DNA of 32,000 nucleotides. Source: Promethearchaeum syntrophicum. Its GTDB lineage: Archaea; Asgardarchaeota; Lokiarchaeia; Sigyniarchaeales; Promethearchaeaceae. The stretch covers positions 1,020,001 through 1,052,000 of the forward strand of contig NZ_CP042905.2 in NCBI RefSeq assembly GCF_008000775.2. Reading direction: 5' to 3'. Numbering within the stretch: the first letter of the stretch is position 1; every line of letters begins with the position of its first letter. The translations under genes were made by a program, and so were the position numbers. Under the pieces are notes generated by a model that saw only the letters and a program-made list of their open reading frames with translations, had not been told where the DNA came from and did not search any database. Of this stretch, positions 5,635 through 27,684 are shown one piece after another.

Positions 5635-7419
5635 TTATTCCTTCCAATCATCTGTAACCCAAGCGGTTATATCAATTTCTTCAAAGAGTGAATCATTTCC
5701 TTCTAGTAGCCCTAAAAATTCCCACTCCTTCTCATCGATCTCAGGTTTTTCACCCGTTGCATATCGTTCAATCATGTTCTCTAATCGTTTGCAATGAGTG
5801 TAATGGGCATCTAATCGCTGTTCTGCATAATCCCGAGCACTCCATGTGGAAATCAGAAATTGCCAATCACTAGCTTGTAATAACAAATTTTCACGACATA
5901 ATTGCTTTAGCATTCGCTGTAAACCAGGATCTTCTTTTTGATGATATTTCGTCACTAATTCTTCAACAAAATCTTCAACTTCGTAAATTTTCTCCCAAGA
6001 CCATGTATTTTCTTTATTTAGCCAAATATAATGGCTCGATCCTTCACCCCAGCTACCCTCCGTTATGGAAACTTGTTTATCTGGCATGCCATTTTTATCG
6101 AGATAGTCATGACAGTGAGTCATTTCTACTTCAGAGTCTGTAGCGAAAAATCTAATAAGTCGATTTATAAACCAAACACCTTCAAACCACCAGTGTCCAA
6201 ATAATTCTGCATCATATGGGGCTATTAGAAAGCCAGGTTTTCCCGATTTATCCTTATATTCTTTTAACACACCCTTAACCGCTTCTTTAAAATGGCCCGC
6301 ATTTTGATCGAGAAGATCATTGATGTCGGGCATGTAATATTGCATTTTAGCGCCCATATCAGCTTTCGGGGAAGTAATTTTCCAATATCGTAATCCACTT
6401 CCACCACCCATAGAATCCTTATAATGTTTTTTATGAAAATCTAAATAAGCTCCACCAGTTGCAGGATAACCATGTTCTCCGCTCCAAACTAAAAGACCCG
6501 TATTCTCATCACGGGTAAAAATCGAAACTGGGTTTTTGGCATCATGATTGGGTAATAAATATGATTCTAATGGTGATCGGGGGAAATCACTATCGACATG
6601 TTTGTATTCTTTCACCATTTGTTCGTGTAATGATTGAAGTAGTGGAAATCGTGCTGCATATACTCCTTGACTTGTTCCCCCCATTAAAAGGGCTGTATCA
6701 ATGAAGAAATATTTCAAATTATTTTTTGATAAAAATTTTTCAACACCAGGCCTATAATGTGGCTTATCTTCACCAATTGGTTTTTTCCAGTTATATCCGG
6801 GGCGGTAAGCGCATTCAGCAAGCCAAGTTCCATGTGGTGCTTGTTGAAAATGCTTTTTGTAATTGTTCACTGCTGTTTTAAACTGTCCATTGATTGAAGA
6901 TTCCCGAGAGAGAAGAGGGGCATATCCATGAGTAGCGGCACACGTTGTAATATCTAAATATCCGCCTTTAAGCAATTTACGAAATTCTCCCATAATATCT
7001 TGATTAATTTCTTCAAAATATTCAACCGTTCGAGAGTAAAATTCATCCCAGAATTTTGCCATTCTGATGTAATTAGCTCGTTCAGTATCTCCCAAGTCTT
7101 TACGATTTTCAAATTCTTCTAAATCTGATAACGCACCTGCAGCTTTTGCTTTACAATAACCAATAAAACCGGATTTGAATACATCAGCGGCAAGCATTTC
7201 GCAAAGAACAGGTGTGATATCAATTGTAATTTTTGGAGTGAATCCTTCATCAATGAGTTTGTTTAACTCCATAAGTAATGGAATATACGTTTCAGCAGCA
7301 GCTTCATGAACCCAATTTGTACCGTGAGGCCAAACACCATAATTTAACACCCAAGGGAGATGAGCATGGAGAACTAAGCTGAAAGAACCCACGAAATTTT
7401 TATTTTCCATAGTTTTCAT
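5635..7419 (-). CDS. GH57-family 1,4-alpha-glucan branching enzyme
   Basis: The N-terminus FSLVLHAHLPWVLNYGVWPHGTNWVHEAAAETYIPLL matches the GH57 branching-enzyme signature known from Thermococcus and Thermus enzymes. Length is ~590 aa with a helical C-terminal domain. Confidence 0.85.
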   Translation of the reverse strand: MKTMENKNFVGSFSLVLHAHLPWVLNYGVWPHGTNWVHEAAAETYIPLLMELNKLIDEGFTPKITIDITPVLCEMLAADVFKSGFIGYCKAKAAGALSDLEEFENRKDLGDTERANYIRMAKFWDEFYSRTVEYFEEINQDIMGEFRKLLKGGYLDITTCAATHGYAPLLSRESSINGQFKTAVNNYKKHFQQAPHGTWLAECAYRPGYNWKKPIGEDKPHYRPGVEKFLSKNNLKYFFIDTALLMGGTSQGVYAARFPLLQSLHEQMVKEYKHVDSDFPRSPLESYLLPNHDAKNPVSIFTRDENTGLLVWSGEHGYPATGGAYLDFHKKHYKDSMGGGSGLRYWKITSPKADMGAKMQYYMPDINDLLDQNAGHFKEAVKGVLKEYKDKSGKPGFLIAPYDAELFGHWWFEGVWFINRLIRFFATDSEVEMTHCHDYLDKNGMPDKQVSITEGSWGEGSSHYIWLNKENTWSWEKIYEVEDFVEELVTKYHQKEDPGLQRMLKQLCRENLLLQASDWQFLISTWSARDYAEQRLDAHYTHCKRLENMIERYATGEKPEIDEKEWEFLGLLEGNDSLFEEIDITAWVTDDWKE

Positions 7420-7543
7420 ATAAGTTTTGTTCTGTTAAAAATTTTCGAAAGTGGAATCTTATTACCAAAAGCATTTAACCATTGCCTAACCAAATAATAC
7501 ATACAGTTTTCAAGTAAAAAGGTTTAATTAATTTTGGATTAAG

Positions 7544-8965
7544 GTGTTTGATATGGATATAATAACCGATTTATCAACAATCATAAAACGAGGAAGAATC
7601 CAAGGGATTGGAAATAAAGAAATAACTCCCGAAATAGTATCTAAGATCGGGGGATCAGTTGGTTCATTTTTAGGTGCAAAAGGAATTATGGTTGTTGCAA
7701 GAGAATTCAATAATAATAATAGAATGTTAAAGAGAGGATTTATTTCAGGATTAATGAGTACGGGTGTGAATATTCTAAATTTGCATTCTGCTCCTGTGCC
7801 TGTTTTACAATTTTGCATTCGTAGGTTTGGTGCAGAATCGGGGGTTTATTTTGGAAATGGATCTGCATCAGATGGAATTGTTCAAATAAGATTTTTTGAT
7901 TCCAGTGGGATTGAATATGATAAAAGTAATCTAGAGTCTGTAAACGAATATTTTAAGAATAATAAAATAGAAAGAGCAAATCCTTGGAATGTTGGAGCAA
8001 TTTCTGATATCCCCCATACTCAAGATATTTATAAAAAAGCTATCCCCCAATTCATAAATCGAAAATTATTAAATTCAAAGAATTTAGTCGTTGTAGTGGA
8101 TTGCTCCTATGGGCCTTCAAGTATTGTAGTTCCATCCATTCTTACCGAATTAAAAAACGATTGTATCGCTATAAATGCTTACGAAAATGATCAAAAAGCG
8201 AATGAAATGTATCCAAATCTTCGTTCAATAAAGGACGTTGTAAATATTGTGAAAGCTTCTCATGCACATTTGGGCATCGTTCTGGATTCCGACGGTTCAC
8301 GTGCATTATATATAGATGAAACTGGATATATCTTGACTTATGAAGAACTAATGATGTTATTTTTAAAATATGATAAAGAATTATCCACAGCAGCAAATGG
8401 ATCATCAATAATTATTTCCAAATCTTCATCAAAAGTGTTAGAACAATTTGCAATTGATTTAAACGATCTAAAAATCCTAAAATCAAAGAATTTTCCTGGA
8501 GAAATTTCTAGGAGTCTTCGTGAAGAACGCGCAATTTTGGGTGGTTCTGACACCTACAAATTCTATTTTCCAAAGTATGGGCCATTCTCTGATGCTACAT
8601 TCACTACTTTAAAAATATTGGAAATTTTAGCTTCTCAGGATTTGCCTTTATCCGTCTTAATTCGTTCTTTTCCTAGGTCCGTCCATTCATATAAAACAAT
8701 TCCAATATCTAAAGAGAATATACTACATTTCGTCTCAAAATTAAAAGATTATATTGGAAAGAAGGATATTGGATTGGAAAAAAATATTGATTTTCAAGAT
8801 CTTCTTATTGGAATTAAAATAATTGTGAAAGATCTTGGTTGGGTGGTAATTTCACCATCAGTTCACGTGAATAATATAGAACTTACTGCAGAAGGTCTTG
8901 ACCCTCATAAATCTGAAGAATTGATCTCTCTTGCTACAGAGTGTGTTGAAAAATGTCAAAAATAG
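7544..8965 (+). CDS. Alpha-D-phosphohexomutase (PGM/PMM/GlmM) family protein with degenerate catalytic motifs
   Basis: The four-domain layout is recognisable: IQGIGNKEITPEIVSKIGGSVGSFL...VVAREFNNNNRMLKRGFISGLMSTGVNILNL, a metal loop LGIVLDSDGSR, and a C-terminal domain. The phosphoserine loop reads GSASDGI instead of T/SASHNP. The metal loop reads DSDGSR instead of DGDGDR. The C-terminal RxSGTEP loop is not evident. GTG start at 7544; ATG at 7553. Confidence 0.6.
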   Translation: MFDMDIITDLSTIIKRGRIQGIGNKEITPEIVSKIGGSVGSFLGAKGIMVVAREFNNNNRMLKRGFISGLMSTGVNILNLHSAPVPVLQFCIRRFGAESGVYFGNGSASDGIVQIRFFDSSGIEYDKSNLESVNEYFKNNKIERANPWNVGAISDIPHTQDIYKKAIPQFINRKLLNSKNLVVVVDCSYGPSSIVVPSILTELKNDCIAINAYENDQKANEMYPNLRSIKDVVNIVKASHAHLGIVLDSDGSRALYIDETGYILTYEELMMLFLKYDKELSTAANGSSIIISKSSSKVLEQFAIDLNDLKILKSKNFPGEISRSLREERAILGGSDTYKFYFPKYGPFSDATFTTLKILEILASQDLPLSVLIRSFPRSVHSYKTIPISKENILHFVSKLKDYIGKKDIGLEKNIDFQDLLIGIKIIVKDLGWVVISPSVHVNNIELTAEGLDPHKSEELISLATECVEKCQK

Positions 8966-10918: not shown

Positions 10919-11572
10919 TTATTTTAAAATCGATAACCCGTTTGATATTTCAATTTTCAATTTCTCATGAATTTTTAAAAGGATCGGGTGGTCGGGGGGT
11001 AAATTTGCTTCAAGTAATTCCCTTTCTTTATAATTTCCTTCAGAATACAATCTTTCTAATTCCTCTTCAGTTAAAGCTTTCTCATTTTGAATAAGTTGTT
11101 GTGCAAGATCCAGAGTTGTTTTATTTATATGCAAAGGATCTACATCCTCTTCTGAAATTATATCCCAAGTTTCTATTGTTTTTTTTTTCTTTTTGAACTG
11201 TAATGAATCAATAGGCATGGGAATATCAAGAAATACTTTGTTACTGTCATTATGTGGTAAAAATTTTCTAAAAAATATGTTTCCATTCAATTTTTTATTC
11301 TTAATTATCCATTTAATTAATGCGGTATCAATAATATCTAGTTTAATAGAAACCCATTTATTTATGGTAGAATTTATTTTAAAAGCACCGTAAGCGTAAA
11401 ATGGGCAAAAAATTATAACCATATAAGCGAAAATATTAAGTCCTCTAGCAAAGAAAAAAGCTGAGAGTATAATTAAATTTAAAATTACATCAATGTGTAA
11501 CGCAACCCTTAATTGTGCTCTTCTCTGTGGTAACACTTTTTTCACTTTCTCCAACTTATACCATTTACTCAA
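10919..11572 (-). CDS. Membrane protein (2 TM hairpin) with a cytoplasmic region ending in a 67-aa module shared with the LRR protein
   Basis: Two hydrophobic helices are present (LIILSAFFFARGLNIFAYMVIIFCPFYAYGAF). The C-terminus KTTLDLAQQLIQNEKALTEEELERLYSEGNYKERELLEANLPPDHPILLKIHEKLKIEISNGLSILK aligns without gaps to the C-terminus of the 20424-21815 product. Function unknown. Confidence 0.6.
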   Translation of the reverse strand: MSKWYKLEKVKKVLPQRRAQLRVALHIDVILNLIILSAFFFARGLNIFAYMVIIFCPFYAYGAFKINSTINKWVSIKLDIIDTALIKWIIKNKKLNGNIFFRKFLPHNDSNKVFLDIPMPIDSLQFKKKKKTIETWDIISEEDVDPLHINKTTLDLAQQLIQNEKALTEEELERLYSEGNYKERELLEANLPPDHPILLKIHEKLKIEISNGLSILK

Positions 11573-11698: not shown

Positions 11699-12619
11699 AT
11701 GTCTCAAAAAACATCTAAATTTTGCTGGGGTTGTGGAAATCAGTTAAAACCTGGACAAAAATTTTGCACTCGGTGTGGAAAGGTGGTAACTTCTCAAATC
11801 AAAGCATCTCAACCCATTGTTGAACGTAAACAAGAAACTAAATCAAATTATGGTAAATTAGCACCTGTTCAACAAACTAAAGAGAATTATCAAGAAAGAA
11901 ATATCCCTAAAGTAAATTCTGTTGATTTAAGTGAAATTGAAAAGAAAATCGATGATCTTCGCTCAAGTCTCGGTGGCCAATTTGAGAAACTTGAATATAA
12001 AGTAAACGGATTCAATGTTGAAAATAAAATTATAGATTTAAAATCCAAATTTGATAAATTATTACCTGAAATATCCAATATGAAAGAATTTAAAAAACTC
12101 GAGAAATTGGACCGACTTGATAGATTGGAGAAATTGGATAGACTGGAGAAGTTGGATAATTTAGAAAAACTCGCCACCGCTGAGGATTTAAGAAATCTTG
12201 ACGAAAAAATCAATAATCTGAACACACGAGATTTAGAATCAAAAATTACTTCTCTTGAAGAAAAAATGAATTCAAAGTTGAGTTCTATTGAAGAAGGAAT
12301 CGATAGTTTCCAATCAGATTCAAAAATTGTCAACCTCGCTTCTAATACTGTCGAAAGATTAAACACTATGGATAGAAATATTGAAAATTTTAACCTTGAA
12401 ACTCGAACCCGGTTATCGAAAATGGATGACAAGATTGAAGAATTAAACTCATCGTTATCTGCATTAGTTCCAACCCTTTTGAAATTAAATGAAAAAGTGA
12501 GTAAATTGTTAGTTAAGTCAACAACTAAACCAACTGACATTCAAAAAGGGGCGAAAAAACCAGAAGAGGCCAGTAAACCACCTAAATCTAAATTAGATCT
12601 TCCACCATTTCCCGCTTAA
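11699..12619 (+). CDS. Zinc-ribbon plus long coiled-coil protein with a Pro/Lys-rich tail
   Basis: The N-terminus carries CWGCGNQLKPGQKFCTRCG (CxxC...CxxC). The central ~200 aa are heptad-like and E/K/L/N/D-rich, including the LEKLDRLDRLEKLDRLEKLDNLEKL repeats. The tail reads KKPEEASKPPKSKLDLPPFPA. Confidence 0.7.
   Translation: MSQKTSKFCWGCGNQLKPGQKFCTRCGKVVTSQIKASQPIVERKQETKSNYGKLAPVQQTKENYQERNIPKVNSVDLSEIEKKIDDLRSSLGGQFEKLEYKVNGFNVENKIIDLKSKFDKLLPEISNMKEFKKLEKLDRLDRLEKLDRLEKLDNLEKLATAEDLRNLDEKINNLNTRDLESKITSLEEKMNSKLSSIEEGIDSFQSDSKIVNLASNTVERLNTMDRNIENFNLETRTRLSKMDDKIEELNSSLSALVPTLLKLNEKVSKLLVKSTTKPTDIQKGAKKPEEASKPPKSKLDLPPFPA
12095..12172 (+). repeat. Tandem 9/18-bp coding repeat encoding (LEK/LDR)n
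   Basis: The DNA reads aaactcgagaaattggaccgacttgatagattggagaaattggatagactggagaagttggataatttagaaaaactc and encodes KLEKLDRLDRLEKLDRLEKLDNLEKL. Codon usage differs among units. Confidence 0.8.
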
Positions 12620-12762
12620 CATTTTTTCTTTATCTTTTATTTTGGTTTTCAAAAAAATTTTATTCAATGATAATTTTACTAATTCAGATAATTCTCGAAT
12701 ATTATCAAGAACAGAGTAAAAAAATACGTCTTTGTCAATTCGAGAAAAAAAATGTGATTAAA

Positions 12763-18801: not shown

Positions 18802-20241
18802 CTACCAAGGATGTTTTTTCCGCTTCTTCTTTCCTTGCATCATCTTTTGCTGCATTTCTGCCATTTCTTGCATATCAGGCATTTGGCCACCGTCTAATCC
18901 TGGAATACCACCCGCACCTGGTTGTCCTTTTTTACCACGGCGTTTCTTCCCTAAAATTCCCTTCATAAATACTTTCATTTGAGAATATTGTTTTAACATC
19001 TGTTTTATTTCCGTGTATGTTGTGCCGCTTCCCCTTGCAATTCTTGTAATTCGAGTTTTTCTTATAACATCTGGATTATCTTTCTCGAATTTAGTCATCG
19101 ATCCCAATACATAATCCCATTTATCTAAGTTAGCTTCGGCTAATACCTTAGCTTGTTCAGGGATATTCTGCCCTCCCATCATAGCTAATATTTTTGAAAA
19201 TCCGCCCATTTTATCAAGCGATTTAAGCTGAAGATGCATATCATCAAGCGTAAATTTACCTTTCATCATTCTCTTCATTTGGTCTTCGTCGGGTTCAAGT
19301 TCAAGCTCTTTTACTTTCTCGATTAATCCTTCGATATCAGGGATCCCCAACAATGTTCCGATAAATTTTGAAGCATGAAACTCTTCCAAATCATCAACTT
19401 TTTCTCCAACACCAATAAATTTGATAGGTGCTCCTGATGCGGCTGCTGCTGAAAGTGCTCCTCCCCCTTTTGCTGACCCATCCAATTTGGTTATAATAAT
19501 TGAACCAACATGTGTAGTCTGTGCAAAAGCAAGAGCTTGAGCATAAGCTTGTTGACCTAGTGTTCCATCAATTACCAAAATAGTCTCATTTGGTTTGATT
19601 ATATTTTCCAGTTTCTGCATCTCTTGCATTAATGCAGTTTCTTGCTTATGTCGACCTGCAGTATCCACAATGATAAGATCTTTTTGGTCTTTACCAGTTT
19701 TTATAAAATGTCTTAATCCTTTTTTAGCGATTTTTATGGCATTTTTCTCTTCAGGCATTCCAAAATGGCTCACTTTGATTGAATCACAGGTCTGGGCCAG
19801 CTGGTCGTATGCACCGGGTCGCCACGTGTCCGTACAGATAACTCCTATCTTGAAACCTTTTTTCTTATAAAAATTTGCGAGTTTTCCTATACTAGTTGTT
19901 TTTCCTGAACCTTGGATTCCAACTAAAAGAATTATTGATTGTTTGCCGGTTTTTATCCGTTTAGGAGCGTTATCTCCCCCAAGAATGTTTATTAACTCAT
20001 CATGCACAATTTTAATTATAAATTCTTTTCGTTCGATTTTTTTATTTATCTTTTGATCCATAGATCTCTTCTTTATATTTTCAGTCAATTGTAGACATAG
20101 CTCAACGTTCACATCGGCCATCAACAATGCCCTTTGTAACTCTAGTAGGATTCCGTTAATAGCATCTTTATCAATTTCGGGTAAGCGGCGTATTTTACGA
20201 ATGAGTGAATCAAGAGATTTTCCAAGATCGTTTAAAACCAT
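18802..20241 (-). CDS. srp54: Signal recognition particle protein SRP54
   Basis: It has an N domain, a G domain with [15 protein letters not shown] and TKLDG motifs, and a Met-rich M domain ([20 protein letters not shown]). Confidence 0.95.
20122..20241 (-). repeat. Resident copy (srp54 codons 1-40) of a diverged 120-nt direct repeat; partner at 22045-22164
   Basis: By-eye alignment gives 41 nt identical (20201-20241 vs 22124-22164) and about 20 mismatches over the full 120 nt. Homology starts exactly at the start codon and ends after codon 40. Confidence 0.85.
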
Positions 20242-20423
20242 TTTTACATGTGCTCTTCCTATTTTTTATTTAAATATTTCATTATTTTATTTTTTATATA
20301 TATATAGAAATGGATGAGATTTGAAGTTTTAGAGGATTTGCCATGATATAAGGCAAGAAATTTTTCAATTTAAAATTTTTTTTACCATTAGAACTAAAAC
20401 ACATTTTTTACAACTCTCTACAA

Positions 20424-21815
20424 CTATTTAAAAATTGATTCTCCCGAAAGCAGATTGAATTTAAGTCGTTGGTTGATTTTTTGAATAACAACATTTTCAC
20501 TTGGAAAATTCGATTCGAGCGCATTTCGATCTTCGATATTTGCCTCCCAAATTATTCGCTCGAGTTCATCATCGCTGATTGAATTGGGATCTGAAATGTA
20601 TTGTTGAATAAGTTCAGTAGTTGTTTTTTTGTAATAATTCATTATTTGGTCAATAATCTCCATATTATAGAATTGTCCAGTTTCCATTTCCCCAGTGTCT
20701 TCATCGATCCTTTCATAGGGTGTTAGGAATCTATTTATGAATTCATCAAATCGGGGTCCTAAGTCGAATCCTTTGTATTTTTTATATTGAAACATTAAGC
20801 AGAAGGTAAAATCATGGTTTAAATAGCATAAAGAACGAAGTGGGTTATTTTGGATCTCAATTCTGGTATTAATTTTAAGTTTTGAGGGAAAATACTTTAA
20901 GGATGTTAGATTGTTACCCATCAGATTTAATTTTTTAAGGTTTGGCAGTTCACGGGGTAAACCTTCTAAAGAAACCAATAAGTTTACTCCAAGAGCCATA
21001 TCTTCAAGAAGAGGAAGATATTTGGGAAAACCTCGTAGATTGCGAAGAGGGCAGCCTGTTACAGCGAATTTTTTTAATTTCGGCAATGATGAAGGAATTA
21101 ACTCTAAAGTCTGAATGAGGCAATTATGAATACCGAATCTTTCTAAAGAAGGTAATTTATTTGGAATCCCTCTTAGGGAATTAAGAGAACCTTTAAAAGA
21201 TGGAGGATATGAAGCGTTAATAATAAAAGTTTTTAACGAGGGGAGTTTCGCTGGTAGATCACTGATATCTGCTATTTGAGAATTACTAATGAATAAATTC
21301 TCAAGGTTTGGCAATAATTTCGGTAATCCTTTTAAATTTGATAGCGGAGCTCCTTTTTTAGTCGCTTTTTCATATTCTAGAGAGTCTTTTATGTAGTATA
21401 AATATGAAAATCCGTTAATAGATAGTTTCTTCAGATTTGGCAATTCTTTAGGTAATCCTTCTAATGATTTGATTTCATGGGAAATTATGCCCAAAATGGA
21501 AAGATTTGGTAAGTCTTGTGGTATTCCCTTAAGTGAATCAACAGAATAAGGGGGAAAATCAAACAAATTAATAATAACGAAATTAGGAAATTTTTCCTTA
21601 AATTCCTCTTTAGAAGTAAGACCTTTTCCAAACCTATATGGTTCGGGCTGAGAAAAAAGTTTATAAATTGCATCTTTTTTTTTTTTCATACAATAATGGA
21701 GAAAGATACCTGTTGTTGATTCATTAATTTCATCCCAAATATGGTTTAAATCTTTCTTTCGATAAACATTATTAATTTTATCCTTCTTGGATTCGATTGT
21801 CTTCAATTTAATCAT
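20424..21815 (-). CDS. Leucine-rich repeat protein with a unique N-terminal region and a shared 67-aa C-terminal module
   Basis: About 10 tandem LRR units of ~22-24 aa have the signature L.G(L/I)P..LPNL(K/E).L.I (e.g. SLEGLPKELPNLKKLSI, NLKGLPKLLPNLENLFI, SLEGLPRELPNLKKLNL). The C-terminus aligns to that of the 10919-11572 product. Confidence 0.8.
   Translation of the reverse strand: MIKLKTIESKKDKINNVYRKKDLNHIWDEINESTTGIFLHYCMKKKKDAIYKLFSQPEPYRFGKGLTSKEEFKEKFPNFVIINLFDFPPYSVDSLKGIPQDLPNLSILGIISHEIKSLEGLPKELPNLKKLSINGFSYLYYIKDSLEYEKATKKGAPLSNLKGLPKLLPNLENLFISNSQIADISDLPAKLPSLKTFIINASYPPSFKGSLNSLRGIPNKLPSLERFGIHNCLIQTLELIPSSLPKLKKFAVTGCPLRNLRGFPKYLPLLEDMALGVNLLVSLEGLPRELPNLKKLNLMGNNLTSLKYFPSKLKINTRIEIQNNPLRSLCYLNHDFTFCLMFQYKKYKGFDLGPRFDEFINRFLTPYERIDEDTGEMETGQFYNMEIIDQIMNYYKKTTTELIQQYISDPNSISDDELERIIWEANIEDRNALESNFPSENVVIQKINQRLKFNLLSGESIFK
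20811..21533 (-). repeat. Internal LRR-encoding tandem repeats
   Basis: Recurrent DNA units appear on the + strand, such as aggtttggcaataatttcggtaatcc, agatttggcaattctttaggtaatcc and aaggtttggcagttcacggggtaaacc. Coordinates are approximate, derived from aa ~95-335. Confidence 0.6.
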
Positions 21816-22044
21816 CGATTTTTCCTTTCTATTATAATTTTCGGGTTATTATTTTTAAATATTGACAGAGGTACTTTTTATTGATTAATACGATGGAATT
21901 CATAAAAAAAAGGGAAAAAATATTACCATGCGCATTAATAATTGGGAAACTCGTTCAAATATTCCTCGATATGGGTTTCTAAATCGAATCCAGCTGGAAG
22001 TCCCAACTGAGCATATATTGATACGGATTGCATGGAGGGAGGAT

Positions 22045-22164
22045 CAAAAGCGCTCTTTGTAATTCTTGTAAAACCGCGCTAATAGAATCTTTATCAATTT
22101 CGGGCAATCTTCGTATTTTACGGATGAGTGAATCAAGAGATTTTCCAAGATCGTTTAAAACCAT
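22045..22164 (-). pseudogene. Orphan 5' fragment of an srp54 allele (codons 1-40 only)
   Basis: The track ORF 21979-22164 begins [40 protein letters not shown]. Real SRP54 begins [40 protein letters not shown]. After codon 40 it reads unrelated sequence and stops at codon 61. Confidence 0.85.
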
Positions 22165-22213
22165 ATTCTCAATAATTCCAATTCAACGACATTCAAAAAT
22201 TTTATTTAAAATC

Positions 22214-22987
22214 TTATTCTTCCAAATTATCTGTTCTTGATGAATAAAATCCCAGAAAGAAAAAACTGATAACTAAGGTAAATAAAATCCATGAAATCAG
22301 ATTGTAGACTGTCCTCCCTTCTACTGTTTGGAGATCTATCACCATAAATATTAACATTATCAACATAAAAACACAACCTAAAGCTAAAGCATAGGCTCTC
22401 CGAACAAAATTGATTATTTTTGTATCCGAATATTCAATTGAACCTATTTTTTTTAATTTTTTTGCTGTTAAAATCATGTTGAAAAATAAATATATGTAAG
22501 ATACAAAATGCAAAATATATAAAATGAAAACTCCAATATAGCCAAAATATTTTGATTCTACTTCTACTATTTCTTCATTTACTGCAAAAATTATATATGA
22601 TAAAATAAGGGACCCAATGAAGCCAAGAAATACATAGATTGCAACAAATGTTTTGAATCTCTTTGACTTTACATAATCTTCAGAGGAAAAAAGTTCTAAA
22701 CTAAAATAAAATAATGCAATATTCCCTAAAATAGAAAAAAATAACTCTGCTCCAACGAAAACATTATTTGCTTGAGGAAACACTTGATTCAAAATTGCTA
22801 ATCCTGGAAAGAAAAAATAACACAAGAAATAATATGAGATATATTTTGAAGATAATTTCTTCTCTTTTTGGTAATAAATATAAGCAATAACAACATAAAT
22901 TATTGAGAGAGCTGCTCCTAAAATTTTTAGAATATATCTTGAAATCTCAAAAATTTCTGGACTTAATTGCATTTCCATGAATTTCAC
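22214..22987 (-). CDS. Seven-TM integral membrane protein, function unknown
   Basis: About seven hydrophobic segments of 20-27 aa, rich in aromatic residues, are separated by short loops. No soluble domain is recognisable. Confidence 0.6.
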   Translation of the reverse strand: MKFMEMQLSPEIFEISRYILKILGAALSIIYVVIAYIYYQKEKKLSSKYISYYFLCYFFFPGLAILNQVFPQANNVFVGAELFFSILGNIALFYFSLELFSSEDYVKSKRFKTFVAIYVFLGFIGSLILSYIIFAVNEEIVEVESKYFGYIGVFILYILHFVSYIYLFFNMILTAKKLKKIGSIEYSDTKIINFVRRAYALALGCVFMLIMLIFMVIDLQTVEGRTVYNLISWILFTLVISFFFLGFYSSRTDNLEE

Positions 22988-23058: not shown

Positions 23059-23502
23059 TTATAATATCGATTTATATTCTTGGGCTTGGAGAAATGATTT
23101 GATTTTTTGTTCTAATTGATGCTCCTGAGTTGCTAGTAGATAATTTTTAGTCCAAATTCCCGAAGTACCACTTTTAATGGGGGATAAATGTTGTAAAAAT
23201 CTTCTTGAACTAACCGATTTTAGATTACTGATAAATTTCGTTAATTTCATCAAATCCTTTTTAGTTTTTTTTTCCCCATAAACTGATAAATCTGTTTGCG
23301 ATTTCGCTTCAAATATAATTTCAATGTGTTTTTTTTCTAAATAAACGGAGATCAATTTAACATCATCATCATTCTTCTCAAGATTAAAATAATTTGTAAT
23401 AATATCTTCCATTTTATCTTTTAATTCTTTAGTTGTAAATAAGGATTTATCTCCTTTTGTGCAAAATATACATTCATACCTAAGAAACTCAATTAATTTC
23501 AT
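23059..23502 (-). CDS. Divergent IS200/IS605 TnpA-like (Y1/HUH-fold) protein, paralog 2; HUH replaced by H-I-E
   Basis: It is a paralog of the upstream gene (shared VKLISVY...H.EI.F.A block). LRYECIFCTKGDKSLF parallels YHIVWCPKYRRKVL. KKHIEIIF sits at the DHIHIL position. LKSVSSRRFLQHL parallels KGRSSRILRQEF. IWTKNYLLAT parallels LWTNSCFIST. KSFLQAQ parallels QYIENQ, with Phe at the catalytic Tyr position. Comparison was made by eye against remembered IS608 TnpA. Confidence 0.45.
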   Translation of the reverse strand: MKLIEFLRYECIFCTKGDKSLFTTKELKDKMEDIITNYFNLEKNDDDVKLISVYLEKKHIEIIFEAKSQTDLSVYGEKKTKKDLMKLTKFISNLKSVSSRRFLQHLSPIKSGTSGIWTKNYLLATQEHQLEQKIKSFLQAQEYKSIL

Positions 23503-23525: not shown

Positions 23526-24017
23526 TTAAAATTTCTCAATCGTGCTGATTGTTTTTTGAAGATTTAGATACGCTTCTAACTGTTGTTTTACTATTTGTCT
23601 TCGAGAACTTAAGAATATATTCTCATTCCAAAGACTATCCCCCAAAAGAAGAAGAATTTCCTTCAGCTTTGGAACATCTTTTTTTGCTTCCTCTAAAATA
23701 TACTCTGCTGAATGATTATACAAATCTTTTATAAATTGTTTTAAGTTGAAGACTGGTAGAGCTTGAAAATTGATTTCTACATGATCATTGTGTACATATA
23801 CTGAAATTAACTTTACATTCTTCTTTTTTTCATTTTTTTCATAAAAAAAATCATAGATCCCTGCCTGAATAATCTCTTTCATTTGTTCATTAATTAAAAT
23901 TTCCTTAAATTTACGAATAGTGAAAACAAGGATATACCTTAACAACGTAATGGATCTATTATTTCTATCCATTATTTCTATTTTCAAATAATTTTTCAAT
24001 TCAGATCTATAGTACAT
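23526..24017 (-). CDS. Divergent IS200/IS605 TnpA-like (Y1/HUH-fold) protein, paralog 1; HUH replaced by H-V-E
   Basis: It is collinear and nearly ungapped against IS608 TnpA. RYILVFTIRKFKEIL parallels YHIVWCPKYRRKVL. VKLISVYVHNDHVEINFQALPVFNLKQFIKDLYNHSAEYIL parallels VEIIEMQTDKDHIHILADIDPSFGVMKFIKTAKGRSSRIL. LWNENIFLSS parallels LWTNSCFIST. EAYLNLQ parallels KQYIENQ, with Tyr retained. An internal ATG at codon 16 is an alternative start. Confidence 0.55.
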   Translation of the reverse strand: MYYRSELKNYLKIEIMDRNNRSITLLRYILVFTIRKFKEILINEQMKEIIQAGIYDFFYEKNEKKKNVKLISVYVHNDHVEINFQALPVFNLKQFIKDLYNHSAEYILEEAKKDVPKLKEILLLLGDSLWNENIFLSSRRQIVKQQLEAYLNLQKTISTIEKF

Positions 24018-24309: not shown

Positions 24310-25014
24310 CTATAAAACCTTTTTATCTATCAAGTTCGGAAATTTTAGAGGGATTTCCGAAATATCATTAATAATGTAATCCGCTTTTACTTTTTGAAAG
24401 AGTTCAAAGGTTCCCGCTCCACTTAGAACTCCAACCGTAATAATCCCCGCTTTTTTTCCTGCTAAAATATCTTTGGGAGAATCTCCAAAAATCATAATAT
24501 TTTGTGGTGAAAAACCCCATTTGTGTAATAATTTCATTACTCCTTCTGGATGGGGTTTCTTATGTTTTACATCATCTTTTGAAATTATATTCCCTTCAAA
24601 ATAATTCAAGATGTCTTCCCTGCCATCAAAAATTGATTTTATCTCATTGCGACTTGCATTCGTAAACATACCGATTTTAACATTATTTATCTTTAAAAAT
24701 TCTAAAGTCTCTTGAGTTCCATCTATTAATGGACATTTCTGAACAAATTCATATAGCACATTTCTCGCTTGGAACATCATTTTTATCCGTCTAAAAAAAT
24801 TAAGGTTCATTTTTTTTCCTAGAAACATCATAACTTCATACCTTTCGATAGCTGAGCCAGTTATAGAGAGAGGGATGCCAACCTTTTCTCGAAAAAGAGC
24901 ATCTAATTCATCAGTTAAAGGAAAATTATAATCCTCTGCTATTTTTCTATGAATATTTATAATGAATGGAACATCGTCTATAATCGTTCCGTCTAAATCG
25001 AATATAACGCCCAT
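24310..25014 (-). CDS. HAD-superfamily phosphatase (phosphoglycolate phosphatase/PGMB-like subfamily)
   Basis: Motif I follows directly after the ATG at 25012-25014 (MGVIFDLDGTIIDD). The remaining HAD motifs (TNAS; K..KP.PEG; GDSPKDILAGKKAG) follow in order. The track uses TTG 25053, adding 13 aa; the ATG start places DxDGT at the usual N-terminal position. Confidence 0.8.
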   Translation of the reverse strand: MGVIFDLDGTIIDDVPFIINIHRKIAEDYNFPLTDELDALFREKVGIPLSITGSAIERYEVMMFLGKKMNLNFFRRIKMMFQARNVLYEFVQKCPLIDGTQETLEFLKINNVKIGMFTNASRNEIKSIFDGREDILNYFEGNIISKDDVKHKKPHPEGVMKLLHKWGFSPQNIMIFGDSPKDILAGKKAGIITVGVLSGAGTFELFQKVKADYIINDISEIPLKFPNLIDKKVL

Positions 25015-25138
25015 TTCTTTTTTTATGTTACCCACTATACATTTAAATGACAAAATAGTATTAAAATGAATTGGTAGAGATATAGTGCTGACATGCTAAA
25101 TACCGAATTGGGCGTATGAAACTTAAGATTTGAATTTT
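24921..25138. repeat. Copy A of a ~220-bp diverged direct repeat (HAD codons 1-~32 plus ~124 nt upstream)
   Basis: It aligns by eye with 26861-27081. The distal 71 nt (25068-25138 vs 27011-27081) have 7 mismatches. The coding part is about three-quarters identical, with one in-frame 3-nt indel. Confidence 0.85.
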
Positions 25139-25504
25139 GATTTATTTAAAAAATAAAAAGAAAAAGAAATGATGATAAAGAATGATACAAAAATAATAAA
25201 AGAATTTCAAGATGATTTGGTCTTTTATAGATTTGGTTTATTTAATTTTATTAATTCGTATTCTGGGTTGTTTAATTTATATTTGAATCTCCAATTGATA
25301 AAGGAATGGAAATTTGAGTAATTATTGAATAAAATATGCAAGTTCTATTTCAAACAATATATATATAATCAATTTATAATTTTTAGGGAACATAATTAAA
25401 TATTTTAAGTGAATCAATTAATATTGTGGAGGAAATGAATAATTAGAGTAAAAATTGTTAAAATCCATAGAGTTTTATCATGGTTCTTAGTTCTTTTTTC
25501 AATT

Positions 25505-26827
25505 TTGACAATTTTTACTGGATATATAATAGCAAGAAAATGGTTTCTTATTGAGAATATCTATATTTTATCCACCCTACATAAAATTTTCGAGTGGTTT
25601 TTCTTAATCCTTCTGATTTTCCATCTGATTTTAACTTCAAAGTATTTTTCCATCAATTGGGCAAAAGAGATTCATGGTATGAGAAATTCAAGGAATCGAA
25701 AAATTCACCAATTGAGGATTCTACAGAGAATCACTAGTTGGTTGATTCTGATTAGTGTATCGCTTGTTGTATTGACTGGATTGCACAACTATCAATGGTT
25801 TTCGTTAACTCTCGGACAATTTTTTCTGTTTAAATATCATTCAGTAGTAGATGGATTTCTAACAATTTTTATACTCATTCACTCGGGATTGGGAGCAATT
25901 AAAGCAATAGAACGTAAGAAAGAGAAATTCGATAGAAATAATATTTATGTATATATGATAATGTTCTTATTGATTGGAGGGACCGTCTATTTGGAAGTTT
26001 TTCCTTATATCCTAGGAAACGATTCTATTTCCCAAAATCCTTCGAATATTTTAGAAAGTGAATCCATTGTAATAGGAGATCAAGTTTTTAATTTCAATCC
26101 TCTTGAAATACAAACGATCCGGGAAGATCTGTTTAAAAATGGTTCGTTTTCTGTATTTGATATATTGGTCTATCTTGACAATTTAGGTCAACTCGATTTG
26201 GATTACCATTTCAATGGAACGTTGAACACTTATGTTATTGACAATTTGGAACAACAAAATTTATGGTGGTATAAAATAAAATATTCAGGAGGTTGGGATG
26301 AGAAAAATGTTTTTCGAATGGATCATTATCCATGGAAGGTAGGATCATCTGTGACCCTTCAACCCGCTTCTAAATCTACACTAGATCAAATTTATGCTAC
26401 GTACCTTGAAGAAAATGAACGTTTGGTTTCAAACAATGGAACAGTCATCATTCCCAAAGTTGAAATTAATGGAAGAACAATAAACTATAATTTCTATAAC
26501 GTCACAATAAATCCACACAATTTACGTAATGATACATTCCAAGAGGGGGTAATAACTGCTATTGATATCATTATGAGTTTGGTTGATCAGGGATTAATAA
26601 GCTCTTATAATCTACAATGGTATGATGAAATAGGTACTGCTGAATTTGTTAGGAGTTATTGGGTTGAAGGGATAGAAAACGATAATGCTTACGGAACTTG
26701 TGGTTTTGTTTATGAATCGGGAGATACTGATTTTCCATTCTTTGATGGAAATCATATTCATCTTCCTTCGGATACTCGTATCTTGAATAATCCGGAATAC
26801 TCCAGATGGTTCTGGATATGTCTTTAG
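25505..26827 (+). CDS. Membrane protein: N-terminal 4-5 TM His-containing bundle (cytochrome-b/DUF4405-like, tentative) plus a ~270-aa extracytoplasmic domain of unknown function
   Basis: The TM helices carry conserved-looking His residues (LILLIFHLILT, VVLTGLHNYQ, KYHSVVDGFLTIFILIHSGLG). The C-terminal domain is rich in N/Y/W (NLWWYKIKYSGGWDEKNVFRMDHYPWKVG). The start is TTG, and the reading frame stays open 66 nt further upstream (from 25439) without an ATG/GTG/TTG. Confidence 0.6.
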   Translation: MTIFTGYIIARKWFLIENIYILSTLHKIFEWFFLILLIFHLILTSKYFSINWAKEIHGMRNSRNRKIHQLRILQRITSWLILISVSLVVLTGLHNYQWFSLTLGQFFLFKYHSVVDGFLTIFILIHSGLGAIKAIERKKEKFDRNNIYVYMIMFLLIGGTVYLEVFPYILGNDSISQNPSNILESESIVIGDQVFNFNPLEIQTIREDLFKNGSFSVFDILVYLDNLGQLDLDYHFNGTLNTYVIDNLEQQNLWWYKIKYSGGWDEKNVFRMDHYPWKVGSSVTLQPASKSTLDQIYATYLEENERLVSNNGTVIIPKVEINGRTINYNFYNVTINPHNLRNDTFQEGVITAIDIIMSLVDQGLISSYNLQWYDEIGTAEFVRSYWVEGIENDNAYGTCGFVYESGDTDFPFFDGNHIHLPSDTRILNNPEYSRWFWICL

Positions 26828-26858
26828 GCAATAAATAAATTGAAAAATTTAACTAGTA

Positions 26859-26956
26859 AGGGGAAATATAATCTTCTGCAATTTTTTTATATAGATATTG
26901 AGAATGAACGGGAGGTTTTCTAAAATTGTTCCATTTAAATCGAGAATTACCCCAAT
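26859..26956 (-). pseudogene. Orphan 5' fragment of a HAD phosphatase allele (about 33 codons, start codon ATG to ATT, DLDGT to DLNGT)
   Basis: The reverse strand reads (att)GVILDLNGTILENLPFILNIYIKKIAEDYISPY-stop. The resident gene reads MGVIFDLDGTIIDDVPFIINIHRKIAEDYNFPL. Many codon differences are synonymous (ggc/ggg, gtt/gta, ata/att, acg/aca, cca/ccg, att/atc, gag/gaa). Confidence 0.8.
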
Positions 26957-27081
26957 TTTTTTTTTTTTATTTCACCCATTAAACACTTAGATGACAAAAT
27001 TAATTTAAATAAATTGGTAGAGATATAATGCTGACATGCAAAATACCGATTTGAGTGTATCAAACTTAAGATTTGAATTTT
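26861..27081. repeat. Copy B of the ~220-bp diverged direct repeat (partner 24921-25138)
   Basis: See copy A. The T-run is expanded to T13 (26956-26968) relative to copy A. Confidence 0.85.
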
Positions 27082-27246
27082 AAATTCTGTTTTGATACAT
27101 TGAAATCAAATTATGGATAAGATATTCTTTTTTATTTTATTCATTTAAAATTCGACGACTAAACATCATTAAAATTCAAAAAATTCATAATATCTAATAA
27201 CATATATTTATAGTAAAAACATTTTAACAAAGAATAAGTGATAATT

Positions 27247-27684
27247 ATGGCAAGAAAAACAGCGAATAACTTAAAAAAGGGCAATTATTTTATTTTCGAA
27301 GGAGAACCCTATTTAGTTTCAACCAACGACCATAGTAAGTCGGGGAAACACGGACATGCCAAGAGTCGAATAGGCTGTCAGGGTTTATTTACAAAAAAGA
27401 AGAAATCTATGACATTTACTGCAGATACAAGTCTAGACGTTCCTGAAATTGAAAAAAAATCTGGGCAACTCGTAGACATTGATGATCAAGGGCAAATTGT
27501 ACATGTAATGGATCTGGAAACTTATGAAACCATGGAATTAATGTACCCTTTTGAGGAAGATGAATTAAATTTAAAAAAATTAGAGGAATTAATGCACGAT
27601 CATGATTTACAAGGTGAAACCACAATTGAATTTTGGACAGTTATGGGGAAATCGTTCGTAACGAGAGTAAACCTACCTAAATAG
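27247..27684 (+). CDS. eif5a: Translation initiation factor 5A (aIF5A)
   Basis: MARKTANNLKKGNYFIFEGEPYLVSTNDHSKSGKHGHAKSRI carries the hypusine-site motif S-K-S/T-G-K-H-G-H-A-K. A C-terminal OB-fold-sized domain follows. The track start GTG 27238 is less likely than ATG 27247. Confidence 0.9.
   Translation: MARKTANNLKKGNYFIFEGEPYLVSTNDHSKSGKHGHAKSRIGCQGLFTKKKKSMTFTADTSLDVPEIEKKSGQLVDIDDQGQIVHVMDLETYETMELMYPFEEDELNLKKLEELMHDHDLQGETTIEFWTVMGKSFVTRVNLPK

Follow-up and report, generated by a model that had tools for sequence, protein, structure and literature searches.

The stretch of DNA analysed here, referred to as the window, comprises 32,000 nucleotides of the chromosome of Promethearchaeum syntrophicum (Prometheoarchaeum) MK-D1, the first cultured Asgard archaeon (contig NZ_CP042905.2, positions 1,020,001 to 1,052,000 of the forward strand). 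Comparison of the window with itself by BLAST revealed two strong pairs of dispersed repeats only, one at a gene for a HAD-family hydrolase and one at srp54. At the HAD locus, direct repeats at 24918-25138 (copy A) and 26858-27081 (copy B), with 79.1% identity over 225 aligned positions (E=1.8e-47), were found to flank a single gene, encoding a DUF4405/cytochrome-b-like membrane protein (hereafter the cargo gene), in agreement with a preliminary description of this DNA in which diverged direct repeats of about 220 bp bracketed one membrane gene. The edges of the repeats were sharp, with sequence past either end scoring no higher than shuffled sequence in local alignments, and no homology was found by this means beyond the repeat boundaries on either side.

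Copy A belongs to the working hydrolase gene (234 aa, 24310-25014, minus strand, ATG at 25014-25012; Pfam HAD_2, E=2e-30), orthologues of which were present at 61-70% identity on contigs L002, L006 and L077-L080. Here and below, L001, L002, L004 and L006 are contigs of Promethearchaeum metagenome-assembled genomes (MAGs) from a genome-collection scan with SRP54, and L077-L080 are metagenome contigs from a metagenome scan with HAD. The coding part of copy A consists of the first 32 HAD codons (24918-25014, minus strand) and is joined to a promoter-proximal upstream region, P_A (25015-25083, minus strand), whose homologue lies upstream of HAD in L080, L077 and L078 (7/61 positions differing from L080) and which contains, as read by eye, a TATA-like box about 25 nt before the HAD ATG. 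Outermost lies a 55-nt segment, Uy_A (25084-25138), which is about 90% identical to its partner Uy_B in copy B (27027-27081), was present in none of the relatives, and terminates at the repeat edge in an exact 20-nt match (25119-25138 = 27062-27081). The best-kept part of the repeat is non-coding, with about 90% identity in these outermost 55 nt and 88% across an 84-nt stretch, and Uy is, judged by its divergence, the youngest part of the repeat. An RNA gene was considered for the conserved non-coding part and rejected, as this part held no tRNA and gave no Rfam match at gathering score, with only chance-level matches at E<=1; nor was any unusual fold detected in it (z-scores +1.4 to -1.8).

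On the far side of the cargo gene, 30 nt (26828-26857), the presumed illegitimate junction, separate its stop codon from the point where stub homology sets in. Here lies a 5' stub of the HAD gene (26852-26956, minus strand, with nucleotide homology from 26858; tblastn 51% over 35 aa). Read from 26956 to 26852 on the minus strand, the stub encodes IGVILDLNGTILENLPFILNIYIKKIAEDYISPY-stop, in which ATG has become ATT, DLDGT has become DLNGT (the second catalytic Asp being changed to Asn), one extra codon has been gained and a stop follows codon 34; the real HAD start in copy A and the lost start codon, Asp to Asn change and 3-nt insertion in copy B were thus all as first described. Behind the stub lies a second promoter-proximal copy, P_B (26957-27026, minus strand), homologous to the HAD upstream region and carrying a 22-nt stretch around the TATA-like box that is identical to L080; if still active, P_B would be predicted to drive transcription antisense to the cargo gene. 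Uy_B is followed by an MK-D1-specific segment of 89 nt, E89 (27082-27170), missing in L080, L077, L078 and L002, and then by the native flank, consisting of the aIF5A promoter region (27171-27246, plus strand, 90% identical to L080) and, downstream of it, the aIF5A gene (27247-27684, plus strand). An inverted repeat of 10-11 nt (27056-27065 and 27089-27099; TGTATCAAAC and GTTTTGATACA, with a 23-nt loop) straddles the right boundary of copy B, and its right arm is missing in copy A.

Between the two copies lie a 300-nt AT-rich leader (25139-25438, plus strand), which contains a 50-codon open reading frame (ORF; 25169-25321) with no family match, and the cargo gene itself (25439-26827, plus strand). 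Neither the sequence that follows copy B nor any of the loci fetched was significantly similar to the leader. The single plus-strand gene, the AT-rich leader and the small ORF were as described earlier, but the start given for the cargo gene at 25505 was not upheld: N-terminal alignment of homologues placed the beginning of coding homology at 25439, upstream of this first listed start (TTG 25505), and the resulting translation (462 aa, 25439-26824) was a 100% match to DSAG12_01523. An in-frame TGA is present at 25436, and an ATG at 25435 lies in another frame (ATG AAT AAT T|AGA GTA), as does a Shine-Dalgarno-like GGAGG; taken with homology from 25439, this points either to a 5' frameshift, making the gene a possible pseudogene, or to an unusual start. 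The NCBI call for the gene is of 382 aa only, from an internal ATG, and the frame problem at 25435 recurs in an independent assembly described below. Proteins of the cargo family are about 450 aa long and combine a DUF4405/cytochrome-b561-like membrane domain with a conserved C-terminal domain of about 290 aa; the match to Pfam Ni_hydr_CYTB was weak. The search gave 598 homologues, mostly from Asgard archaea and widespread in Thor-, Heimdall-, Loki- and Hermodarchaeota; leaving out the protein itself, the nearest of them (54% identical, on contig L072) sits among unrelated genes. With no close homologue of the cargo source context found, the joint at the HAD locus could not be placed to the nucleotide.

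Relatives without the insertion were found at this site. On L002, L077, L078 and L080, aIF5A and HAD are transcribed divergently, about 150-185 nt of intergenic sequence and no membrane gene lying between them, which is the divergent ancestral layout proposed in the preliminary description. The relative nearest to MK-D1 at aIF5A is L080 (nucleotide distance 0.09 across the first 192 nt; 93% amino acid identity over the full-length protein and 98% over the first 64 residues), and compared with it MK-D1 has two additions, namely the cargo gene with the duplicated segment, and the 144 nt of Uy_B and E89 between P_B and the aIF5A promoter. In the MAG CSMAG_2442, a different membrane ORF of 202 aa lies upstream of HAD on the same strand (L006, 228-836), where other relatives have aIF5A, which indicates that the HAD upstream region is variable within the genus. 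L080 was also observed to change its affinities along this locus, being nearest to MK-D1 at aIF5A (0.09, versus 0.18 to L077) and nearest to L077 at HAD (0.10, versus 0.25 to MK-D1); these conflicting affinities suggest that recombination between lineages near the HAD start has also occurred among the relatives.

A second case with the same build, 5 kb away at srp54, had been described previously and was confirmed. Here the repeats (20120-20244 and 22043-22167) are 84.8% identical over 125 nt (E=6.6e-34, self-BLAST) and enclose an insert at 20245-22042 (minus strand), 74% identical in nucleotide sequence to metagenome contig L076 from 22033 to 20419. One repeat copy forms codons 1-41 (20120-20244) of the full-length srp54 gene (18802-20244, minus strand); the other lies in a 5' stub (22043-22213, minus strand), in which codons 1-41 (22043-22164) adjoin the ancestral srp54 upstream region, alignable with that of three related MAGs. 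On L001, L002 and L006, srp54 directly follows a gene for a 257-aa membrane protein (mem257), with no leucine-rich repeat (LRR) gene, and the srp54 upstream region of these three contigs aligns with the sequence upstream of the MK-D1 stub (22165-22260). The insert carries, on the minus strand, a new srp54 upstream region with no homologue (20245-20423), an LRR gene with LRR Pfam matches (20424-21815), the sequence upstream of that gene and, at about 21930-22033, some 105 nt of the 3' end of a neighbouring gene of foreign origin, X, recognised by homology to L076. With the ancestral upstream region left at the stub and sequence without a homologue upstream of the full copy, the essential srp54 gene appears now to run from an imported promoter.

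The ends of the srp54 insert could be followed more closely. Homology to L076 sets in near the end of gene X, inside its final 105 nt or so, and breaks off 5 nt beyond the LRR stop codon; where srp54 codon 41 meets the X fragment, an apparent GATG-like microhomology of 3-4 nt was seen by eye, the stub now reading GATC. A search for homologues of gene X in other genomes, including a second MK-D1 copy, returned the query's own contig only, and the LRR search gave no MK-D1 protein other than that of the query gene. On these grounds, the insert resembles an arbitrary X-LRR piece of another genome and not a defined mobile element. Within srp54, a breakpoint was detected near codon 207 (maximum chi-square, permutation p=0.001); the 5' 200 codons fell outside the MAG clade (quartet sites 29 vs 5 vs 12) and the 3' part did not (21/27/18). 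The gene order of a donor was sought among the LRR orthologues and not found, as these (68-70% identity) lie beside TPP-enzyme genes (L073-L075) or beside X and a LOR-family gene (L076), and never beside srp54.

Several smaller observations were made at srp54. The downstream neighbour of the LRR gene differs between MK-D1, L073 and L076, homology stopping within a few nucleotides of the stop codon. L073, L074 and L075, from three MAG assemblies, carry the same LRR orthologue and each contig ends 40-125 nt upstream of it, which suggests a repeat or strain variation at that position. The srp54 start is TTG in the three MAGs (L001 135, L002 3074, L006 3857) and ATG in both MK-D1 copies (20241, 22164), and the stub is about 5 nt shorter just upstream of the start than the relatives.

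A third case was found in a relative. In L004, also from MAG CSMAG_2442, the last 46 codons of a 290-aa gene and about 50 nt downstream are duplicated as repeats (6884-7082 and 7832-8025; 81.6% over 206 nt) with an insert of about 750 nt between them, at a site that is uninterrupted and single-copy in MK-D1 (12473-12671) and in L001. The 290-aa gene encodes a zinc-ribbon/coiled-coil protein, the junction as a whole spans 6884-8075, and the insert also carries a 64-nt fragment of the same gene (7542-7605). The stub, which lies in the ancestral downstream context, has 2 unique changes, and the copy on the working gene has 8. No further case, and no other strong dispersed repeat, was found in 49 kb of MK-D1 sequence (the window with 17 kb of added flanks) beyond those at HAD and srp54; roughly a dozen of the unrelated by-catch loci, about 1.05 Mb in all, showed dispersed direct repeats, of whatever nature, of like size and identity. 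The recurrent mechanism suggested previously thus gained an example in a relative but none from the added flank, and with three cases in about 100 kb of Promethearchaeum and related sequence a lineage-wide mechanism is plausible but not established.

The earlier statement that neither insert holds an integrase or transposase was borne out, as no recombinase, integrase or transposase was identified in a Pfam scan of all ORFs in and around the inserts. No inverted repeats pairing the insert ends were found in either insert, and a transposon or insertion sequence was rejected given the absence of a transposase and of terminal inverted repeats and given duplications that are 125 and 221 nt long and diverged. 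The only recombinase-like genes were two of the IS200-like Y1_Tnp type, arranged in tandem between the loci (23059-23502 and 23526-24017, minus strand) and outside the inserts; they are syntenic in L002 and L006 at 52-59% identity and carry H-I-E and H-V-E at the expected HUH position (read by eye, without alignment to the Pfam model), and these features suggest that they are domesticated and possibly inactive. The GC content of the inserts matched that of their neighbours and so gave no sign of foreign origin, and searches for other copies of Uy, E89, the leader and the new srp54 upstream region gave chance AT-rich matches only.

Our interpretation of this arrangement, which draws on comparative sequence evidence, is that the cargo gene probably arrived by homology-anchored integration of DNA from a related lineage, without an integrase, either through homology-facilitated illegitimate recombination (HFIR) or through single-crossover insertion-duplication. 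The donor would have been a related Promethearchaeum lineage in which the membrane gene adjoined HAD, and a fragment carrying it would have been integrated by the recombination machinery of the host, with the HAD 5' end and its upstream region serving as anchor and no dedicated recombinase playing a part. By the first route, homologous recombination at one end would be combined with an illegitimate join in the resident HAD 5' region at the other; by the second, Campbell-type, route a circularised fragment of about 1.9 kb would enter by a single crossover. Either would leave the cargo between two alleles of the HAD start and promoter that have diverged from each other, one fused to the working HAD gene and the other remaining as a dead stub, its promoter kept and its start codon and catalytic Asp lost. 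Campbell-type insertion-duplication requires the homologous segment to be repeated directly on either side of the insert, as it is here, and the near-identical blocks at the repeat edges (20 nt at HAD and 41 nt at srp54, both exact) could represent the crossover tract of such an event; HFIR predicts an imported gene end up to the crossover, which the breakpoint at srp54 codon 207 fits. The whole MK-D1 HAD gene, for its part, is 1.2-1.8 times more distant from the relatives than these are from each other, being an outlier among them although aIF5A nests with L080. As both routes yield the observed structure the two cannot be separated. Either HAD copy may be the imported arm or the native one. 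L080 was tried as an arbiter and rejected, both copies being 7 of about 60 positions off in the promoter and the HAD coding sequence of L080 looking L077-like.

The alternative is a local event without foreign alleles, in which a DNA fragment would have entered a break within the HAD 5' region through joining of long staggered ends or template switching in replication, with duplication of 221 nt of resident sequence, neutral decay of the stub and, later, gene conversion of the outer 55-75 nt. Against it, both pairs of repeats are mosaic. At HAD, Uy differs by about 9.5%, P by 18% and the coding part by 27%, and at srp54 differences occupy 5/75 positions in codons 1-25 and 14/48 in codons 26-41, so that a duplication of single age was rejected in both cases (Fisher tests calculated by hand, p ~0.01 for HAD and ~0.002 for srp54); mosaic repeats whose older parts have reached between-species divergence argue against simple local duplication, and the local event would demand an additional conversion step at both loci. 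The HAD alleles differ at 15/32 third positions (0.47), twice the value for aIF5A between MK-D1 and L080 (33/143, 0.23; Fisher p=0.009), which indicates that the alleles split before MK-D1 and this empty-site relative did. In codons 26-41 of srp54, stub, full copy and MAG clade lie at much the same distance from one another, with 10-15 differences in 48 nt, and the non-synonymous changes are divided 3:3 between functional copy and stub, where a decaying local duplicate predicts about 1:10. In L004 it is the copy on the working gene that is the more derived of the two, which also speaks against the local event.

Other counts weigh against a foreign allele and are in keeping with the local event. 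The non-synonymous changes at HAD are split 4 in the working copy to 10 in the stub, which fits simple stub decay, as do the losses of the start codon and catalytic residue, and the promoter part of both copies groups with L080 (7/60 each) against the other relatives (13-17/60). The dominance of synonymous changes noted in the preliminary description amounted to only about half of the changes at HAD, 13 synonymous against 12 non-synonymous differences separating copy B from copy A. Raw pN/pS values of 0.21 (srp54) and 0.24 (HAD) reject neutrality of both copies, but when local duplication with one neutral copy was tested the result was p=0.003 at equal rates and ~0.1 with transition bias (our own estimate, from 10 transitions to 7 transversions counted in the non-coding part); local duplication is thus not robustly rejected by these counts, which were set aside as proof of a foreign allele. 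The apparent microhomology at the srp54 joint also suits end joining. No internal recombination breakpoint was detected in HAD, no donor genome in which HAD adjoins the membrane gene or LRR adjoins srp54 was found, L080 is weakened as a reference since its own HAD gene may be recombinant, and all counts are small. Uy, in turn, is present in both copies and in no relative, which implies either that the donor was closer than L080, at odds with how far the coding parts have diverged, or that the copies underwent gene conversion once integrated; under any model, Uy calls for some step of conversion or heteroduplex repair. On these comparisons several of the tests favour two alleles from different lineages over local duplication, and we regard the local event as unlikely. 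The earlier proposal of a homologous arm from a diverged allele is accordingly supported in part: two lineages are probable, but no donor was found and either copy may be the imported one.

Three further explanations were considered, each with less in its favour. The exact block at one repeat edge of each pair (25119-25138 = 27062-27081, 20 nt; 20201-20241 = 22124-22164, 41 nt), and a working gene rebuilt by a diverged end, recall integrase-driven elements that target gene ends, such as e14 or phage 21 at icd and tRNA-targeting archaeal elements, from which the integrase and most of the element might have been deleted. The inserts are without integrase or recombinase, however, the two blocks have no motif in common and terminal inverted repeats are missing; the end of the srp54 insert falls within chromosomal gene X at an apparent microhomology, like that of a random fragment and unlike that of an element, and two independent erosions to a single gene, leaving about 1.8 kb each, would be required, so that this origin is improbable. 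An insertion-duplication older than the split, with the cargo lost from the sampled relatives by precise pop-out, would account for the old repeat parts being diverged as much as species are, and precise excision between direct repeats is possible. It would nevertheless call for losses in at least four relatives at the HAD locus, which form no single tight aIF5A clade, and in three at srp54; pop-out would retain Uy and E89, yet these 144 nt are missing in all relatives, and the single copy of L080 is no left/right chimera of copies A and B, the sites shared with each being interspersed. We consider such a reversed polarity highly doubtful. Finally, a chimeric assembly or the collapse of two strains is scarcely credible, nothing having been found in its favour. 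A Logan assembly of run DRR199588, which we take to be from the MK-D1 culture, reproduced the arrangement at 100% identity over 11,972 and 9,866 nt, the latter a single contig spanning mem257, HAD, the cargo gene, the stub, aIF5A and beyond. The longest exact run between the HAD copies is 20 nt, which we assume to be shorter than the assembler k-mer, so that a false join through the HAD repeat is not expected; the same contig ends at 22135, inside the 41-nt run of the srp54 stub, as would be the case at a true repeat in a k-mer assembly.

Integration of related-lineage DNA by either route is, by analogy, not new in kind, such events being known in bacteria. The usual outcome of HFIR is insertion with deletion of recipient DNA. 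It has reportedly been described in naturally transformable bacteria, in work by de Vries and Wackernagel from 2002, Prudhomme et al. from 2002 and Meier and Wackernagel from 2003. On the reading proposed here, the present cases would share with it the integration of foreign DNA by a single homologous anchor, with the other end joined at a few nucleotides of microhomology, and an arbitrary chromosomal cargo, and they lack a recombinase or element ends; they differ in that the joint lies behind the end of homology and the resident gene-end stub is kept, and in that HFIR has been shown experimentally in bacteria whereas here it would be read from footprints in an Asgard archaeon. Campbell-type single-crossover insertion-duplication is familiar from insertion-duplication mutagenesis and archaeal pop-in constructs. 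It resembles the present cases in the direct repeats of a homologous segment around the insert, in the possibility of pop-out and in an edge block that can be read as a crossover or heteroduplex tract, but would require a natural circle of about 1.9 kb from the chromosome of a relative, and none was observed. When e14 and phage 21 integrate into icd of E. coli, the element supplies a diverged duplicate of the gene end. There, as on the reading proposed here, an imported and mostly synonymously diverged end keeps the target intact and the native end becomes a stub, and an exact block lies at one repeat edge; e14 and phage 21, however, have an integrase and defined att sites, whereas the inserts described here have no integrase, a single-gene cargo and, in one case, an end within a foreign gene.

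Displaced orphan gene ends are also found at Rhs, contact-dependent inhibition (CDI) and type VI secretion system (T6SS) effector-immunity arrays (3' regions in the case of Rhs and CDI), for which an HFIR-like route has been proposed (PMC5361080). In these arrays the resident end gives way to an arriving module that carries a conserved anchor, the remnant stays beside the module and the process recurs at the same loci (PMC5361080), whereas the anchors in MK-D1 are housekeeping genes (HAD hydrolase and srp54) and in 2/3 of the present cases it is the 5' end and promoter that are displaced. In the light of such displaced ends in bacteria (PMC5361080), the suggestion that the architecture represents an undescribed element type was abandoned in favour of HFIR or Campbell-type insertion-duplication. 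Aloposons (Wu et al. 2022, PMC8813620), which integrate at tRNA genes and carry giant genes, were considered and found not to be relevant. Among 15 of 23 papers on HFIR with archaea, judged by title and abstract, none dealt with such footprints in archaeal genomes.

Eukaryotes have their closest known relatives in the Asgard archaea, whose ways of acquiring genes are a matter of active debate. The junctions described here may serve as dated, nucleotide-level footprints of single-gene gain without an integrase, probably from related lineages, and they suggest that the promoter of an essential gene, as of srp54, can be exchanged when a gene is gained. As the footprint is one that can be scanned for (a gene-end stub a few kilobases from the intact gene), it could be used to count events and find donors across Asgard genomes. 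A bolder reading, in which fragments of about 1-2 kb from chromosomes of relatives, possibly circular, are gained one gene at a time through short homology beside conserved genes by a dedicated recurrent mechanism, of which the repeat spacing and the Y1_Tnp pair would be part, is one to which we attach little credence; were it true, the promoters on the gene-end stubs would drive transcription that enters the new gene or runs antisense to it. From start to start, the repeats of the two pairs are spaced almost equally (1923 nt at srp54 and about 1943 nt at HAD), which may be a coincidence.

Outside the junctions, the C-terminal 87 aa or so of the LRR protein were found to be 34% identical to the C-terminus of an otherwise unrelated 217-aa membrane protein encoded 9 kb away (10919-11572), and by this similarity the two C-termini are a shared domain, to which no function is assigned. 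A fragment in the L004 insert also resembles this C-terminal domain common to the LRR protein and the ORF at 10919-11572.

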